From Promethearchaeota archaeon (GTDB lineage: Archaea; Asgardarchaeota; Lokiarchaeia; Sigyniarchaeales; SOKP01): a DNA stretch of 64,000 nt. Positions within the stretch are counted from its first letter, which is position 1, and each line of letters starts with the position of its first letter. Shown in pieces: positions 12,467-18,410 of this stretch. The notes beneath the pieces were generated by a model that saw only the letters and a program-made list of their open reading frames with translations, did no database searches and was not told the DNA's origin. The position numbers and the translations under genes are program-made. The stretch lies in NCBI GenBank assembly GCA_019894975.1, contig JAGXNO010000004.1:1-64000 (forward strand), written 5' to 3'.

Positions 12467-14353
12467 ATGTATATTAAGAAACAGACCTCTCGTCAACTTC
12501 CCGGAATAATATCATATATGGAGCTTTTTCAGTCAAGAAAGTTAGCTTATGCTACTTTTTTCGGCACTCCATTTGTTCTAGGATTAATTTCATTACTTCT
12601 ACATTTTATATTGATAAACGTATGGGAGTTTTTGCACTTTTTTAGATTTGTAGGCCTATTTTTACTTATACCCGGCTTAGCTGCTGGTTTTTCTATGTTG
12701 TTTTATTCTAAAAAAGCCCCTATTTTGCGACCACCTCCAATGGGATGGTCAATTCAAATGAATGTCTATTTTAGTGCGGTTATCGAAGTAACATTTATGC
12801 TTGGTCAGGTAATAGCAATAGTTCTTCAAAATATTTGGTATCAGGAAATGTTTCTAATTTTGGGAACTATCATATCGTATATTGTAGCTTTTGTTATCTA
12901 TTTTTCTTTTACTACAGTTGGACGCCCGGGATATATAATACTCTCCTTAGTTCAACCAGTGACTACGATACTCCTTTACAGTCTTTACATAGGCCAATTT
13001 GATCCCGACTTTTTTATTAGAGCGTTGGTTTTTTTTGTTACATGTGCTTTAATATTCGCGCTCCCGTATAGAAGAGGCTTGTTTCATGTTAGTAATGTCT
13101 ATAAAGAAGCAACTGGGATGAGCGGGTATCCCTTTATCAGGGCTTTTATTCTTTCTATGATGACTGATGGTAATGATGATCTTATAGAAAGCTATTTCGA
13201 AAGAGTTGGAATTAAAAAGGGTGTAAAGATTCAATATTTAGTTATAAGAAGTATATCCACTGAAGAGATTAAAGGTTTATTTGTTATCCCAAATGTACAT
13301 TTCGGTCCTTTCAAAACTTGCGGTTCTTCTGATTTACCCGAGTATATTTATAGGGCATTTAAGCATATTCCGGGTACAACTGTTTATCATACTACCAATG
13401 ACCATTCTCAAAATTTAACAACTCAAAATGATGTAGAAGTGGTTCTTAAAAAGATTGATCAAGACATATTATCAATAAAAAATAATCCCGAAATTAAATG
13501 GATTCAGGAAATTAAAAATTTTAATAGAAAAATATCAAATTCTGCTAAACTCATTGGGACAGAGATAGGAAAAACCCCCCTTATATTTATAACTAGGCAC
13601 CCTCTTCCTTCGGATGATATTGAATCTGAAGTAGGAGATAATATTAGGGAATTTGCCAAATCGTGTGGTCATCAAGATGTTATTATCGTAGATTCTCATA
13701 ATTCCATTATGGGAGATGAAATATTAATTAAAAAAGATTCGATTGAGGCTTTAGATCTAATAAACGTTTCAAAAGAGTTCTTTACAAGTGAAAGAGTAAT
13801 AAATTCCCCAAAAGTTCAGATGTTGTATGGTGTTGCGAAAGGCAGTATAAAGAATTATTCAGAGAAAGATGGTATTGGCGTTGGAGGGGTAGTTGTTCAT
13901 CTCTTTAGAGATACAACCAATAACCAGACCACAGCTTTGATTAATTTTGATGCAAATAATGCTTATGCAGAAATTCGGTCATATATTTTAAATATGTTAC
14001 AAAATAAAGGAATTGAAAAAGGAGAAATTACCACTTCCGATTCACACACAGTAGCAAGGCAATTCTCCGCTAGAGGGTATTCCCCTATTGGGGATAAAAT
14101 AAAGATTGACGAAATCTTAGATAAATTAAATTTATTGATTGAAGAGGCACAATCTAATCTAGAACCCGTCGAATTTTATTATAAAGATTCAATGGTAGAT
14201 AATGTAAGAATTTGGGGCGATCACCAGTATTTTAATGCTATTATTGATACACTAAAGGAAGCAATTAGGGTATCTCAGCGATTACTTACTCTTAGTTTAA
14301 TAGTACCTACCTTTTTCTCATTAATTATACTCTTTTTTCTGTATAATATCTGA
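12467..14353 (+). CDS. DUF2070-family membrane protein
   Basis: N-terminal TMs; VHFGPF, H.T.DH, DSHN, DANN and TSDSH motifs; C-terminal TM. Confidence 0.8.
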   Translation: MYIKKQTSRQLPGIISYMELFQSRKLAYATFFGTPFVLGLISLLLHFILINVWEFLHFFRFVGLFLLIPGLAAGFSMLFYSKKAPILRPPPMGWSIQMNVYFSAVIEVTFMLGQVIAIVLQNIWYQEMFLILGTIISYIVAFVIYFSFTTVGRPGYIILSLVQPVTTILLYSLYIGQFDPDFFIRALVFFVTCALIFALPYRRGLFHVSNVYKEATGMSGYPFIRAFILSMMTDGNDDLIESYFERVGIKKGVKIQYLVIRSISTEEIKGLFVIPNVHFGPFKTCGSSDLPEYIYRAFKHIPGTTVYHTTNDHSQNLTTQNDVEVVLKKIDQDILSIKNNPEIKWIQEIKNFNRKISNSAKLIGTEIGKTPLIFITRHPLPSDDIESEVGDNIREFAKSCGHQDVIIVDSHNSIMGDEILIKKDSIEALDLINVSKEFFTSERVINSPKVQMLYGVAKGSIKNYSEKDGIGVGGVVVHLFRDTTNNQTTALINFDANNAYAEIRSYILNMLQNKGIEKGEITTSDSHTVARQFSARGYSPIGDKIKIDEILDKLNLLIEEAQSNLEPVEFYYKDSMVDNVRIWGDHQYFNAIIDTLKEAIRVSQRLLTLSLIVPTFFSLIILFFLYNI

Positions 14354-14436
14354 TATGTTTTTACTAACTATAATTCAAAATTTATATAATTCATACTCTT
14401 AATTCTTATTTATACAAAAAAAAAAATGAATAGATT

Positions 14437-15162
14437 ATGGCATTAAGTTTTTTAGATACTTTAAATGGTGTTTTTTCACTTATTTTTGTAGCGATCTCCT
14501 TGTTTGTAGGGTTTATAATACTCACCAGATATTTTAAGTATAAGGAAAGAGTATATTTTCTGGTCGGAGCTACTTGGGTATTAATTGCATCCCCTTGGTG
14601 GCCTTCTAGTTTATCATTTTTAGTAGCTCTATCTAATGGAACGGGAATTACCGAAGAGGCTTATTTTCTAATAGGAAATATATTTGTACCACTAGCAGTA
14701 GTGTTATGGTTATTGGCTTTCACAGAATTCCTTTACACTGAAAAACGCAAGTTAATTCTTATAATATTTACAATAATTGGCTTAATTTTTGAAGTCTTAT
14801 TTTTGACAATTCTATTCCTAAATCCAGACTTTATAGGCGAGTTGAATCCTCCCGTCGATGTAAACTATAAATCGTTTATTATGATCTTCCTCATAGTTTT
14901 TCTGCTAATCGTAGTGGTTACTGGCTTTTTATTTGCTAATCTTTCTCTGAAATCTAAAGATCCTGAAGTAAAACTTAAAGGAAAATTATTAGTAATTGCT
15001 TATATAACTTTTTCAGTTGGAGCTTTATTAGACTCATCTATACCGTTAAATGAGATATTGATTATTATAACTAGATTGATTTTAATACTAAGTGCGCTTT
15101 GTTGGTATGGTGGATTTTTGTTACCAAAATGGTTAAAAAAATTTCTTTTAAAAAAGAAATAA
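14437..15162 (+). CDS. Stand-alone 7-TM membrane protein (sensor-like)
   Basis: Seven hydrophobic segments in 241 aa, basic loops, basic tail (LPKWLKKFLLKKK), no soluble domain. Confidence 0.75.
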   Translation: MALSFLDTLNGVFSLIFVAISLFVGFIILTRYFKYKERVYFLVGATWVLIASPWWPSSLSFLVALSNGTGITEEAYFLIGNIFVPLAVVLWLLAFTEFLYTEKRKLILIIFTIIGLIFEVLFLTILFLNPDFIGELNPPVDVNYKSFIMIFLIVFLLIVVVTGFLFANLSLKSKDPEVKLKGKLLVIAYITFSVGALLDSSIPLNEILIIITRLILILSALCWYGGFLLPKWLKKFLLKKK

Positions 15163-15261
15163 TCCCCCATTTTTTTCTCTATATTACTTAGATATTATCC
15201 AGATTCATATTTTTTTTAAATCCATTATGTATTAATAATTCATTTAAAATCATGAATAGGT

Positions 15262-15783
15262 ATGTTAAGTACAGAATTAGACAAATTAGTAAAAATTACA
15301 TTGATAGGTTCTCCCGCAGTTGGGAAAACTACTATAGTTAAACTTTTATCAGAAAATACATTGGATCGTTTTTATATTCCAACTCATGGATTAGATTTAA
15401 AATCTGTAAAATTTGATGATTATTTTTTAAGATTATGGGATTTAGGTGGACAAAGTGGCTACCTCCGAACGTATTCTAAAGATTATTTAATTGGATCTGA
15501 TATTATTTTTGTAGTAACCGACTCTACACCTCGAAATGTATTAAATTCAAGAGATTTAATTAATTATGCATGTCATTTTGTGGGAAAAGAATGCCCTATC
15601 ATCGCAATAGCGAATAAACAGGATTTACAAGATGGTCGAATGGATCCGAAGAGGGTTGAGGATCTTCTTCATGTGAAAACATATGCTTTAGCAGCAATAG
15701 ATCCGATGGAAAGATTGAAACTAATGAATATAATAAAAAATGAATTAGAAAAAATAGCAATTAGGAGGGGATTAAAGAAATGA
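15262..15783 (+). CDS. Small Ras-superfamily GTPase (Arf-like)
   Basis: G1 GSPAVGKT, G2 PTHG, G3 WDLGGQ, G4 NKQD; G5 degenerate. Confidence 0.92.
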   Translation: MLSTELDKLVKITLIGSPAVGKTTIVKLLSENTLDRFYIPTHGLDLKSVKFDDYFLRLWDLGGQSGYLRTYSKDYLIGSDIIFVVTDSTPRNVLNSRDLINYACHFVGKECPIIAIANKQDLQDGRMDPKRVEDLLHVKTYALAAIDPMERLKLMNIIKNELEKIAIRRGLKK

Positions 15784-16340
15784 AATTTAATGAAGAAGAA
15801 GTGTTTGGGGCTGCTTTAATAGGATTTGATATGATCGATGGCCCTTTTCTTAAATGGAAAAAGGAATATAACAAAACAAAAAATATGGTTAAGTTAGACG
15901 ATTTTGCGATGAATTTTTATCTAGCGTTCCGAGGTGGAAACGCATCAGGAAAAAAACCAAGAGCAATACTATATGACAATTTTTATATTGTAGCTTTTCC
16001 AAGAGATTTAGAATTATGTTGTCTTTTTATGAAACCTCAAAATCTTGATGAAAACATTAAACAATTGAATAAAGTAGCCTCTAGGATTATTACAGAAATG
16101 GAAGTTAAAGAAAAACCCGAAGCTGAAGTGCCTATAGAGTCAGATGAAAACACTGTAGAAGAAATAATGAGATTGATCCCAAATATATTATCCGAAGCCA
16201 AAATGTCAACTCCAGAATTGAGAAGGTATTTTAAATTGAGTAATTCTCAAATCTGGAAAATCATGTCTGAATTAGAAAGTGCTAGAAAAGTCAAACGTGC
16301 AGAGAAAAAAGGCAGATCAATTATGTGGACTGCTTCTTAA
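15780..16340 (+). CDS. Longin/uDENN-like domain fused to a C-terminal winged-helix domain
   Basis: N-terminal ALIGFDMIDGP motif; C-terminal MSTPELRRYFKLSNSQIWKIMSELESARKV HTH; ATGA overlap with the GTPase gene. Confidence 0.65.
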   Translation: MKFNEEEVFGAALIGFDMIDGPFLKWKKEYNKTKNMVKLDDFAMNFYLAFRGGNASGKKPRAILYDNFYIVAFPRDLELCCLFMKPQNLDENIKQLNKVASRIITEMEVKEKPEAEVPIESDENTVEEIMRLIPNILSEAKMSTPELRRYFKLSNSQIWKIMSELESARKVKRAEKKGRSIMWTAS

Positions 16341-16377
16341 AGCTTAATTCTTTTCCATTTATCAATTTTTTTTTATT

Positions 16378-17193
16378 TTATCTTGTCCTGTGATCCCAAC
16401 CATGTTCCTTCGTATAAAGACGAGAAAACATGATATAGCATATATCAGGTAAATCTTCATCTAAATTGTTCACAGTTATATATCGAAGAATGTGATTTAA
16501 CACAAATATACCAATAAATTCTACATGATAACTTCCTAAATTTTTAGCTAAATTTTCACCATAGAATTTTATATCTAAACCACTTTCTTTATCCCACGTA
16601 ATTTCAGTGAATATTTGTGGAAAAATTTCTCTTTTTATAAGCCATCCATTAACGGTTTTCCGTACTTTAGCACCTAAAAAATTCTCAAGGCTTTCTCGAT
16701 CTTTTTCTTGTAAAAATTTGAATGGTGTTCCTCTCTGTAATAAAACTCTTTCCATTAAATCTGATTTTAAATCATATTTTTTTTCAAATGGTTCTTCTCC
16801 TTTTAGCTTTCTTTCGATAAGATCCATAACAATATCGACAAAAGTTGCGCTGTCTTCTCCAGGAACCCATGTGACATGATTTCCTGAAAAATAGAATTTA
16901 AATTCTGCTTCAATATCATCTCCAAATTCATCTCCAAAGTAAGAATAGCTCATATGAATATCGACATCTGGAAACATTTCAATAGTTATAGTCCAATCTT
17001 CACTAAAACCAATGTGTTCAACTTCTCCTCCTAAATCTTCTTTTACAATGGATTCAAGCTTATTTGAATCGATATCAATAAAGAGGTTAAATTTTGCTTT
17101 ACTTATATCTTCTAATTCCTTCTCATGAGGGCCTCTGACACCAGTAGCATCAATCTGTCCAATTGTCATGAATTTTCTATTTTCTGGTTTCAT
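16378..17193 (-). CDS. Hypothetical protein with two internal repeats, DUF3786-like
   Basis: LGG...WTITIEMFP...GDEF...FYFSG...GED is repeated as LGA...WLIKREIFP...IKFYG. Confidence 0.5.
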   Translation of the reverse strand: MKPENRKFMTIGQIDATGVRGPHEKELEDISKAKFNLFIDIDSNKLESIVKEDLGGEVEHIGFSEDWTITIEMFPDVDIHMSYSYFGDEFGDDIEAEFKFYFSGNHVTWVPGEDSATFVDIVMDLIERKLKGEEPFEKKYDLKSDLMERVLLQRGTPFKFLQEKDRESLENFLGAKVRKTVNGWLIKREIFPQIFTEITWDKESGLDIKFYGENLAKNLGSYHVEFIGIFVLNHILRYITVNNLDEDLPDICYIMFSRLYTKEHGWDHRTR

Positions 17194-17231: not shown

Positions 17232-18410
17232 TTATATTGCTTTTTTTTTGAATTTTCCTACAAAGAATCCTTGTGTTTTTTGTTTTGAAGGAAACAGCCT
17301 ACCAGCTCCAGATATTCGAGAACCATTAGTTTTATAACTTGGAGAAAACCAAGTCGGTAGGTTTTGAGCTTCTAATTGATTTAAAAAATTCATAATAATG
17401 TATTCTCCTTCTTCGGGATAAAGGCTGCATGTGGAATAAACTAGGATTCCCCCCGGTTTTAACAATCTTAAAGCACTTTGAAAGAGTTTCTTCTGTAAAA
17501 CTGTGTTTTGATGTAGAAATTTTTGATTCTGTCTCCACTTTAACTCAGGATTTGTTAAAAAAGTACCATTACCGGTACAAGGAGCATCCAATAATATTCT
17601 ATCAAACATATTTTGAAACCTTAAAGGAAAAGCTATACTATCGATGTTTAAAAGATGGGTATTTATCACATTCAGATGATTAAGTAATTGAATCATAATC
17701 CTTATTCGCGGGTTAAGAAATTCCCCTGCAATTATTTTACCATGGTTCCTCATTTTTTGGGCAATGTAACTTGCTTTTATGCCTGGTGCAGCGCACATAT
17801 CACAAATTAATTCTTTTGGTTGAGGATCTAAAACATCAACTACTGCAGCTGAAGCCCTATCTTGAAATATAAGATCTCCTTTTTGATAAATTGGACTTTT
17901 TAAGACTTTGGATTTCATAGTCCTAGGTATTGTAATCATATCTTCTAGATGAGCATCTTTGGTAAAGGAAATATTTAGATTTTCTAATTCAGACTTAATT
18001 ACTAAATCTAAATTCTTCTCATGGTCTTCCTCTAATAATCTATTAATTCGAACTGCGATACTATCCCCTTCAACTAAGCCATTCATAACCTTCAAGTTAT
18101 CTTTTATGAATTCTAAATCCATTACGGGTAAAAGACGTTCTATCATAAAACTTGGTACAGCTTCACAAATGCTTAATTTTTCTATCTCATCTTTACTCTG
18201 CAAGGCTTTTTCCCATGAAAACGTTCTTACTTTCTTTAAAAAATTTGTATTAATACCTTTTACTTCTTTTAAGATTGTTTTATTGGAAGTATTTTCCCAA
18301 AAAATCCTATACGTCACAAAGAAGTAGTGAGCTAATTGATTTATGCTAAGTTTTTTAGAATCGGGAAGATTTCTCTTAATAATAAAATTGAGTTTATTCC
18401 AAAATCTCAC
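17232..18410 (-). CDS. RsmB/NOL1/NOP2-family RNA m5C methyltransferase
   Basis: FQD, DMCAAPGIK, DRILLDAPCTG and YSTCS motifs; frame is open upstream to about 18566, with a possible ATC start at 18533. Confidence 0.92.
   Translation of the reverse strand: MRFWNKLNFIIKRNLPDSKKLSINQLAHYFFVTYRIFWENTSNKTILKEVKGINTNFLKKVRTFSWEKALQSKDEIEKLSICEAVPSFMIERLLPVMDLEFIKDNLKVMNGLVEGDSIAVRINRLLEEDHEKNLDLVIKSELENLNISFTKDAHLEDMITIPRTMKSKVLKSPIYQKGDLIFQDRASAAVVDVLDPQPKELICDMCAAPGIKASYIAQKMRNHGKIIAGEFLNPRIRIMIQLLNHLNVINTHLLNIDSIAFPLRFQNMFDRILLDAPCTGNGTFLTNPELKWRQNQKFLHQNTVLQKKLFQSALRLLKPGGILVYSTCSLYPEEGEYIIMNFLNQLEAQNLPTWFSPSYKTNGSRISGAGRLFPSKQKTQGFFVGKFKKKAI

Follow-up and report, generated by a model that had tools for sequence, protein, structure and literature searches.

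A translationally coupled Arf-like GTPase and longin/roadblock-class winged-helix protein form a conserved gene pair in Lokiarchaeia

The stretch of DNA analysed here (hereafter the window) comprises 64,000 nucleotides (nt) of a Promethearchaeota archaeon belonging to the Lokiarchaeia (Sigyniarchaeales, SOKP01; assembly GCA_019894975.1, contig JAGXNO010000004.1, positions 1 to 64,000; G+C 29-36%). It contains a two-gene operon in which the gene of an Arf-like small GTPase overlaps that of a second protein, here called the partner, which joins an N-terminal domain (N-domain) of the longin/roadblock class to a C-terminal winged helix. The two genes are strictly paired among relatives, the partner has an invariant FD-x3-GP hairpin, and a conserved box lies upstream of the operon. 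We read this pair as an Asgard GTPase switch, in which the partner is dedicated to the Arf-like GTPase, has a nucleic-acid-binding output and is expressed together with division genes, a reading that we give about an even chance of being right. The operon is composed of the following features.

15262-15783, plus strand: Arf-like small GTPase, 173 amino acids (aa), recognized by Pfam Arf, relatives in PDB and G-motif columns
15764-15783, plus strand: coupling junction, with GGAGG (15764-15768) within the 3' end of the GTPase gene and an ATGA start/stop overlap (15780-15783)
15780-16340, plus strand: open reading frame (ORF) of the longin-winged-helix partner, 186 aa
15780-16109, plus strand: longin/roadblock-class N-domain, residues 1-110, ββαβββα, from AlphaFold2 models and structural matches
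16110-16148, plus strand: disordered acidic linker, residues ~111-123
16149-16340, plus strand: C-terminal winged helix-turn-helix and stop codon, residues 124-186

The GTPase scores 65.8 bits against Pfam Arf (cut-off 22.3; 4.4e-18), and the solved structures closest to it are Arl3, Arl2 and Arf1. Its motifs are GSPAVGKT (G1), PT41 in switch I, WDLGGQ64 (G3) and NKQD (G4); the columns of G1, of the threonine in switch I, of WDLGGQ and of NKQD are invariant in the family alignment, in which the catalytic Q64 is kept and no arginine of the GTPase's own stands at the Arf position. The N-terminus, MLSTELDKLVK, provides about 10 residues ahead of b1, with neither Gly2 nor a long amphipathic stretch, and the amphipathic helix with a myristoylated Gly2 that marks Arf proteins is therefore absent.

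The ATG of the partner overlaps the TGA of the GTPase gene within ATGA. This frame is no chance ORF, since its product has 491 homologues at E <= 0.001, with 73-95% identity among the 120 listed. When 1.8 billion cluster representatives were searched exhaustively, just 28 relatives emerged, so that the family, as judged from these searches, is a narrow one; it is also strongly conserved. The partner is encoded by a single copy in its 3.9-Mb genome and is the slowest-evolving of four neighbours tested (mean p-distance 0.244).

A GTPase homologue was found directly upstream of the partner gene in all 84 species-representative loci that extend far enough in this direction. The same holds for 11 of 11 deeper relatives, which belong to other families of the class and phylum, and for metagenome loci whose partner is just 31-52% identical; the original marine-sediment records give the two genes consecutive locus tags. 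Of 85 loci, 80 have overlapping reading frames; the overlap is most often 4 nt (50 loci) or 11 nt (22), and lengths of 14 nt and 1 nt are seen in three loci each. A GGAGG-like site lies 9-14 nt upstream of the partner start in nearly all of the 85. A preliminary description of this DNA, made from the sequence alone, had proposed that the partner is translationally coupled to the GTPase; the overlap, the GGAGG site and their recurrence agree with that proposal, and the linkage proves to be tight and family-wide.

Of 400 genomes from the phylum, 176 encode a member of the partner family. Within its own taxonomic family the share is 122 of 134, and none of the searched families of the order and class is without it. 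All named homologues bear Asgard labels (Promethearchaeota/Loki, Thor, Hod, Hermod or Odin). Other Asgard families have stand-alone N-domain homologues of 131-164 aa that lack the winged helix (loci L101-L105; genomes G006, G005, G113, G117 and G397). One of them, L102, still abuts a GTPase homologue, which ties the N-domain, not the winged helix, to the GTPase. Since the wider neighbourhood is kept among close relatives only, and distant relatives retain nothing of it except the GTPase and its partner, this pair is the conserved unit.

The fold of the N-domain was predicted with AlphaFold2, for which a 26-row alignment of the partner protein was used. The model has strands at residues 8-17, 21-29, 62-64, 69-75 and 78-84 and helices at 39-49 and 89-111; modelled alone, the domain reached a predicted local distance difference test score (pLDDT) of 82 and a predicted template modelling score (pTM) of 0.70. 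Longins have the topology ββαβββαα and roadblock domains αββαβββα, with a five-stranded antiparallel meander and helices on both faces (PMC3747258), and this superfold is present in the N-domain model. By the same definitions the domain resembles longins in starting with b1 rather than with an N-terminal helix, and its single long C-terminal helix (89-111) leaves the second longin helix, a3, absent. All top-50 rows of a VIA-align search were longin, roadblock or profilin platforms, with Z scores of 5.4-7.9 (TRAPP 7.9, GATOR1 chain C 7.6, MglB 7.3, C9orf72-SMCR8 6.1), a range that the tool calls common. Foldseek returned AP, COPI, DENND1 and TRAPP longins, the AP and COPI matches being sigma, mu and zeta longins, and a structure search of the ESM Atlas returned DENND11 with a template modelling score of ~0.6 over residues 3-112. 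Further structural neighbours were roadblock/LC7 proteins, LAMTOR and Ego subunits, Mon1-Ccz1, and the crystal structures of Asgard roadblock and longin proteins. In these models the superfold is established, and the subclass, longin or roadblock, is not separated by Z.

The N-domain had been described in advance as longin/uDENN-like, with a Foldseek comparison among the checks and the absence of a longin/profilin-like fold, together with a lack of binding to and effect on the GTPase, as the point at which the idea would fall. That comparison returned GTPase platforms, and a longin/roadblock-class fold emerged from all structure searches. The uDENN/FLCN-type part of the assignment did not hold up in the same way: it goes back to a six-residue motif, and no Pfam, PDB or profile match accompanies it.

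The motif in question lies in AALIGFDMIDGP, residues 11-22 of the partner. F16 and D17 stand at the end of b1 (8-17) and G21-P22 open b2 (21-29) in the AlphaFold2 model, forming an F16-D17-x3-G21-P22 hairpin whose four named residues are invariant in 26 members reaching down to 20-33% identity. It has been reported that a GP motif that closes the b1-b2 loop or opens b2 is specific to C9orf72, SMCR8, FLCN, NPRL2 and some Asgard longins and is absent in longins that are not GTPase-activating proteins (GAPs) (PMC12290439), in line with the preliminary remark that such a strand-turn opens the longins of C9orf72, SMCR8, folliculin and NPRL2. G21-P22 is invariant in two alignments and stands at this position, the start of b2. 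The spacing F-D-x3-G-P is the same as that of W33-D34-x3-G38-P39 in C9orf72, where the hairpin W33-D34/G38-P39 contacts ARF1 and the W33G/D34K change abolishes ARF1 GAP activity (PMC8213707). Two arginines of the N-domain, R51 and R61, reach at least 90% conservation in the core set of the family, and one or both of them are missing from the members P0121, P0126, P0141 and P0142.

Among the 25 most-matched of 68 families for the 26 members, neither Folliculin (PF11704) nor NPR2 (PF06218) was matched at E <= 10; in the genome, NPR2 matched nothing and Folliculin matched another gene, not the partner locus. A language-model Atlas search placed an Asgard protein cluster, 19% NPR2, at the top of the named clusters with a score of 0.79, which serves as a lead only. 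No longer fused forms of the partner were found, which is weak evidence, and the longin-DENN heterodimer architecture of GAP longins is not seen in it. Membership of the N-domain among the GAP longins is therefore suggested at the level of the motif only and fails on sequence similarity and on longin-DENN architecture.

Between the two domains, residues 106-124 are acidic (isoelectric point, pI, 4.05), residues 111-123 have a pLDDT below 50, and both the length and the sequence of the linker vary among the 26 aligned members. The winged helix, with the order helix-helix-helix-strand-strand in the AlphaFold2 model, is basic (pI 10.2). In VIA-align it matches PH1932/NolR-type regulators at Z 10.3, with a root-mean-square deviation of 1.5 Å over 61 residues, and DNA-bound NolR at Z 10.2, its other matches being ArsR, MarR and IclR regulators. 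For the 186-aa protein itself, Pfam and NCBIfam gave nothing above threshold and weak winged-helix matches at residues 131-183; divergent members match Pfam HTH_11 (7e-8), HTH_DeoR (1e-7) and HTH_5/ArsR (1e-7). By fold and family matches, the domain is thus an ArsR/DeoR/MarR-like winged helix, as the preliminary mention of an acidic linker followed by a winged helix-turn-helix had anticipated. Its recognition helix, SNSQIWK, is nearly invariant.

Two further features lie upstream of the operon.

15181-15198: imperfect palindrome ATATTAC-TTAG-ATATTAT, the core of a 32-nt box at 15180-15211
15230-15243, plus strand: conserved A/T block tattaataattcat, 19-32 nt before the ATG, candidate TATA box/B recognition element (TATA/BRE)

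When 81 orthologous upstream regions were aligned, the family consensus of the palindrome was ATAATAT-N4-ATATTAT, with half-sites 11 bp apart centre to centre. The box starts 81-83 nt before the GTPase ATG in most of these loci, and 56 of the 81 have at most two mismatches to the palindrome, a level of agreement that ~5% of shuffled sequences of matched composition reach. The box is also present in the distant loci L003 and L004, at -82 and -83, and variants of it occur in most other deep lineages. The A/T block corresponds to the column block CTTAATAA.TCAT of the upstream alignment, and we infer a possible role for it as the TATA/BRE of a promoter that gives a short leader or none; the box lies ~45 bp upstream of this putative TATA. 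Because changes in the arms of the palindrome are not compensated and a search of 14300-16500 against Rfam found nothing, the box looks like a protein-binding DNA site and not an RNA hairpin or other RNA structure.

A genome-wide scan with a position weight matrix of the box gave 41.5 bits for its own site and 24.5 for the next best, and the top ten sites were all intergenic. The sixth-best site (C84:42719-42750) lies 51-82 nt upstream of ftsZ-b (C84:41517-42668, minus strand). The upstream region of ftsZ-b scored 15.9 bits, that of sepF 7.4 and that of ftsZ-a 5.4, against a null of 585 random upstream windows with a mean of -10.5 and a 99th percentile of 3.9 bits. In 27 related genomes, the ftsZ-b upstream regions exceeded the 95th percentile of the null in 25 cases and the 99th in 21; in their box, near -82, the unit ATATTAY occurs three times with a spacing of 11-12 bp (L118-L147). 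A small ribbon-helix-helix (CdrS-like) gene upstream of ftsZ-b was not evident from the ORF translations, for which no family search was made. By these sequence comparisons the operon belongs with the promoter class of ftsZ, and the winged helix need not be the protein that binds the box.

The bare 18-bp palindrome was rejected as a definition of a regulon, since 32 sites were observed versus 51 in shuffled sequence and they precede unrelated genes. The second-best site of the box scan (24.5 bits, C107:31640-31671) lies 93 nt upstream of the gene of a 662-aa protein (L114, C107:29559-31547) in which a winged helix (DUF7347/HTH_45) is fused to a domain resembling anaerobic ribonucleotide reductase. 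Weaker box matches of 9.8 and 9.6 bits, noticed post hoc, stand just upstream of two other small GTPase genes (L153, C102:14141-14671, and L155, C107:19485-19898), one Ras/Rab-like and one Arf-like.

The preliminary description saw in the partner a minimal archaeal version of the longin regulators, either a GAP/GEF (guanine nucleotide exchange factor) or a GTPase-gated transcription factor, and these activities remain hypothetical. In the favoured reading of a two-gene switch, the partner would be made together with the GTPase by translational coupling. Longin and roadblock domains are usually homodimers, and the longin-type platform, probably a homodimer, would dock on the switch face of the GTPase via the F16-D17/G21-P22 hairpin, as a counterpart of the hairpin with which C9orf72 grips ARF1. 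Once docked, the platform would determine or sense the nucleotide state of the GTPase; its most likely activity would be a GAP-like role with R61 or R51 as the finger. The basic ArsR/DeoR-type winged helix, on its flexible acidic tether, would bind nucleic acid, most likely DNA, and the GTP/GDP state would thereby be coupled to a DNA-bound output. Because the promoter box is common to ftsZ and, more weakly, sepF, the pair is probably expressed with cell-division genes, and it may act in division. A complex prediction that combined the GTPase alignment, GTP and Mg with the N-domain alignment scored 0.16 versus a mark of 0.32 and speaks neither for nor against binding. It seems decidedly doubtful to us that the dimer also reads ATAATAT-N4-ATATTAT before its own operon and before ftsZ and sepF under the control of the GTPase state, and in this way, through a small-GTPase/longin module of eukaryotic style, times the transcription of division genes in Lokiarchaeia.

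Several results weigh against this reading of the pair as a switch. The Z scores of 5-8 leave longin and roadblock tied within 1, and sequence comparison places the N-domain in neither: the Pfam matches of 26 members at E <= 10 include no longin or roadblock family, and the N-domain profile has no relative among PDB sequences, just a chance MarR row at E 0.048. In the genome, Robl_LC7 (PF03259) matches 21 places at E <= 1, none of them at 15780-16109, and the domain shows neither the Robl_LC7 match nor the N-terminal helix a1 by which roadblock domains are recognized. Alignment of its profile by hhalign to the folliculin-like longin of the same genome gave a probability of 0.2%, and hmmsearch against all ORFs of the genome detected no paralogue under E 0.4. 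The chain ends in the winged helix, with no DENN module, and no arginine is invariant: distant members have other residues in place of R51 and R61, and R75 varies. Three more distant stand-alone N-domain homologues have no detectable GTPase neighbour (one more is at a contig end), and the correlation of GTPase and partner distances (mirror-tree, partial r 0.29) is of the same size as that of control neighbours (0.28-0.32). The last point concerns the box. In another Asgard family, f31, the sole profile match to the partner in the genomes searched is weak (E 9.7e-4), and 7 of 8 ftsZ upstream regions nevertheless carry a related, mutually conserved box. This element (L157-L164), GTAWTAC-N5-GTAGTATT-GCAG-TTTTTGTT, is located at -66 to -76 before the best FtsZ homologue, scores 5-14 bits and is a candidate Asgard-wide division box. 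On this comparison of upstream sequences, the box is a putative division-linked element that has spread wider than the partner protein. Since it is present where the partner was not found, another factor may bind it, and autoregulation by the winged helix becomes less probable.

This last result bears most directly on the alternative that the partner is a GTPase-gated transcription factor, whose dimer binds the palindrome at its own operon and at ftsZ and sepF, whose binding is switched by the state of the GTPase, and which times division-gene expression. The winged helix is basic and of a prokaryotic transcription-factor type, the half-site spacing of 11 bp would suit a dimeric winged helix, and the strongest site of the genome precedes the operon itself. 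In addition, the box is kept at -82/-83 where the protein is ~31-33% identical, related boxes precede ftsZ-b in 25 of 27 relatives, and where the box is conserved the recognition helix hardly varies. However, a wider-spread factor can account for a box that precedes ftsZ in f31 without the partner protein, other sites in the genome precede unrelated genes, and the box is a candidate site ~45 bp upstream of the putative TATA. The L102 operon, which lacks both winged helix and box, was discarded as support for binding by the winged helix because the ftsZ of the same lineage is also without a box, which makes the case uninformative. We know of no GTPase-gated transcription factor of such a kind in any organism, our literature search having covered Asgard longins and Arf proteins, and we consider this alternative unlikely. 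It is quite unlikely that the partner is instead a plain GAP of the folliculin/NPRL2/SMCR8 kind, a homodimer that supplies R61 (or R51) as a finger to Q64 and uses its winged helix as a protein-protein module without binding DNA. The GP motif at the b1-b2 turn with the conserved FD ahead of it, the conservation of R51 and R61 in the core family and an Arf-like client with an intact catalytic Gln are all consistent with this, and Asgard FLCN/SMCR8-type longins with a GP motif and an arginine finger, as well as the winged helices of NPRL2/3, are known (PMC12290439, PMC3747258). On the other side, neither arginine is invariant, as P0121, P0126, P0141 and P0142 show, the winged helix matches DNA-binding families rather than the NPRL type, and there is no sequence similarity to the NPR2 or Folliculin models.

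The same parts, a small GTPase, a roadblock-class domain, a helix-turn-helix (HTH) domain and a membrane protein, also recall the actinobacterial conservons, in which MfpD is a GAP and MfpC an exchange factor for guanine nucleotides (GEF) (PMC9769811, PMC11343762). One chain would then unite a roadblock GAP (MfpD/CvnB) and an HTH GEF (MfpC/CvnC, DUF742), with the winged helix as exchange factor and a seven-transmembrane (7-TM) protein encoded upstream as sensor. We regard such a regulator as very improbable, as DUF742 (PF05331) has no match at the locus (its best in the genome is elsewhere, at E 0.5), Robl_LC7 does not match the partner, the 7-TM gene is found in 45 of 85 loci and belongs to no Pfam family, kinase or other, and the GTPase is Arf-like and not MglA-like. 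Least probable of the readings considered is an ordinary one-component regulator that senses a small ligand and has no physical partnership with a merely co-transcribed GTPase. An N-terminal sensor with a winged helix is indeed a common prokaryotic layout, and neither sequence homology to GTPase regulators nor an excess co-evolution signal was detected; yet pairing with overlapping frames is near-universal, even at 31% identity and without the winged helix, every structural neighbour is a GTPase platform, and the invariant hairpin equals the one by which C9orf72 contacts ARF1 (PMC8213707).

Compared to known systems, the operon is most readily set beside the eukaryotic Arf/Rag GAPs C9orf72-SMCR8, FLCN-FNIP and NPRL2-NPRL3, in which the b1-b2 turn of a longin-class platform likewise carries an aromatic-Asp-x3-Gly-Pro hairpin. 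It shares with C9orf72-SMCR8 an Arf-family client with a catalytic Gln, and with NPRL2/3 an N-terminal longin followed by C-terminal winged helices; the latter feature, invoked in the preliminary description, is found in the literature as predicted winged-helix repeats (PMC3747258). Unlike this group, the partner is only 186 aa long, has no DENN module and is single-copy, so that it can be a homodimer at most; it has no invariant arginine finger and no detectable sequence homology, its winged helix is of the prokaryotic DNA-binding type, and it shares an operon with its own GTPase. The longin fold and the GP motif are also common to Asgard FLCN/SMCR8-type and NPRL2-like longins (PMC12290439; bioRxiv 10.1101/2020.10.19.343400), for which the same papers leave it an open question whether ArfR or Rag GTPases are the clients. 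Those longins differ from the partner, which is missed by the Folliculin and NPR2 models, has a winged helix as its second domain and is tied in strict pairing to a single Arf-like GTPase.

Among prokaryotic systems, MglA-MglB and the conservons (MfpB/MfpC/MfpD; CvnA-D) also place a small Ras-superfamily GTPase and a roadblock-class regulator in one operon, a set that in the conservon also includes an HTH protein and a membrane sensor. Here, by contrast, the GTPase is Arf-like, the platform lacks the roadblock N-terminal helix and Robl_LC7 signature, platform and HTH are fused in one chain, and neither the DUF742 protein nor the histidine-kinase-like sensor of a conservon is found at the locus. 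A small archaeal DNA-binding regulator type, promoter elements common with ftsZ and division timing are features of the CdrS/CdrL-ftsZ2 system of Halobacteria (PMC7439475) as well; CdrS, however, is a ribbon-helix-helix protein without a GTPase, and the link to ftsZ here consists of the common upstream box only.

Longin/roadblock-GTPase pairs, Asgard NPRL2/FLCN-like longins and Asgard Arf-like GTPases were all previously known (PMC3747258; bioRxiv 10.1101/2020.10.19.343400; PMC10933270; PMC11914678; PMC12290439). It was reported that GTPase genes of strain MK-D1 generally share no operon with longin/roadblock genes, and that operons are rarely of help in matching Asgard GTPases to such proteins (Tran et al. 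2024, PMC10933270). The regulators of Asgard Arf proteins were recently said to remain to be identified (Zhu et al. 2025, PMC11914678), and a 2025 survey of longin GAPs asks which GTPases are served by GP-motif Asgard longins (PMC12290439); the ArfR preprint contains no neighbourhood analysis. In the literature searched for Asgard, Arf, longin and winged helix together, we found no strictly paired, coupled Arf-like GTPase and longin-winged-helix fusion.

Other GP-type proteins were observed in the same genome. A 488-aa protein (L088:595-2058, minus strand, equal to C144:8512-9978) consists of a longin with an FDEKGP hairpin fused to a Rag-like GTPase, followed by a C-terminal extension; with 21-22 bits, its longin narrowly misses the cut-off of Pfam Folliculin, and its GTPase matches Gtr1_RagA at 4.5e-24. 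It is a fused counterpart of the operon, with a partnership of this type in one chain, although the two longins are not detectably homologous. Three more ORFs begin with a hydrophobic strand and [FW]D-x3-GP, namely C92:18118-19779 (FDPLYGP), C103:37406-38443 (FDQIIGP) and C140:10783-11160 (WDNEIGP). These may be further GP-type longins, and one of them has a GTPase-like neighbour.

In the window, the gene next upstream of the operon is the 7-TM gene.

14437-15162, plus strand: ORF of a multi-pass (~7-TM) membrane protein, no Pfam family

A 99-nt promoter region separates it from the GTPase gene, and homologues of the 7-TM protein occur in 45 of 85 related loci, so that this neighbour is common without being obligatory. 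In close relatives, the pair is found within a block of four neighbours that encode a DUF2070 membrane protein (12467-14353), the 7-TM protein (14437-15162), a 271-aa protein with a weak DUF3786 match (16378-17193, minus strand) and a 392-aa protein (17232-18410, minus strand), which we take, by eye, to be an NOL1/NSUN-type methyltransferase.

Small GTPases of eukaryotic type and longin/roadblock proteins number in the dozens in Asgard archaea. The operon offers a pair that is already matched, one Arf-like GTPase with one GP-motif longin protein, and since both proteins are small, soluble and encoded in nearly all searched Lokiarchaeia, binding, hydrolysis and exchange are directly testable. 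The fusion to a winged helix and the ftsZ-type promoter box suggest that the role of these modules before eukaryotes lay in gene regulation or in cell division, and not in membrane traffic.

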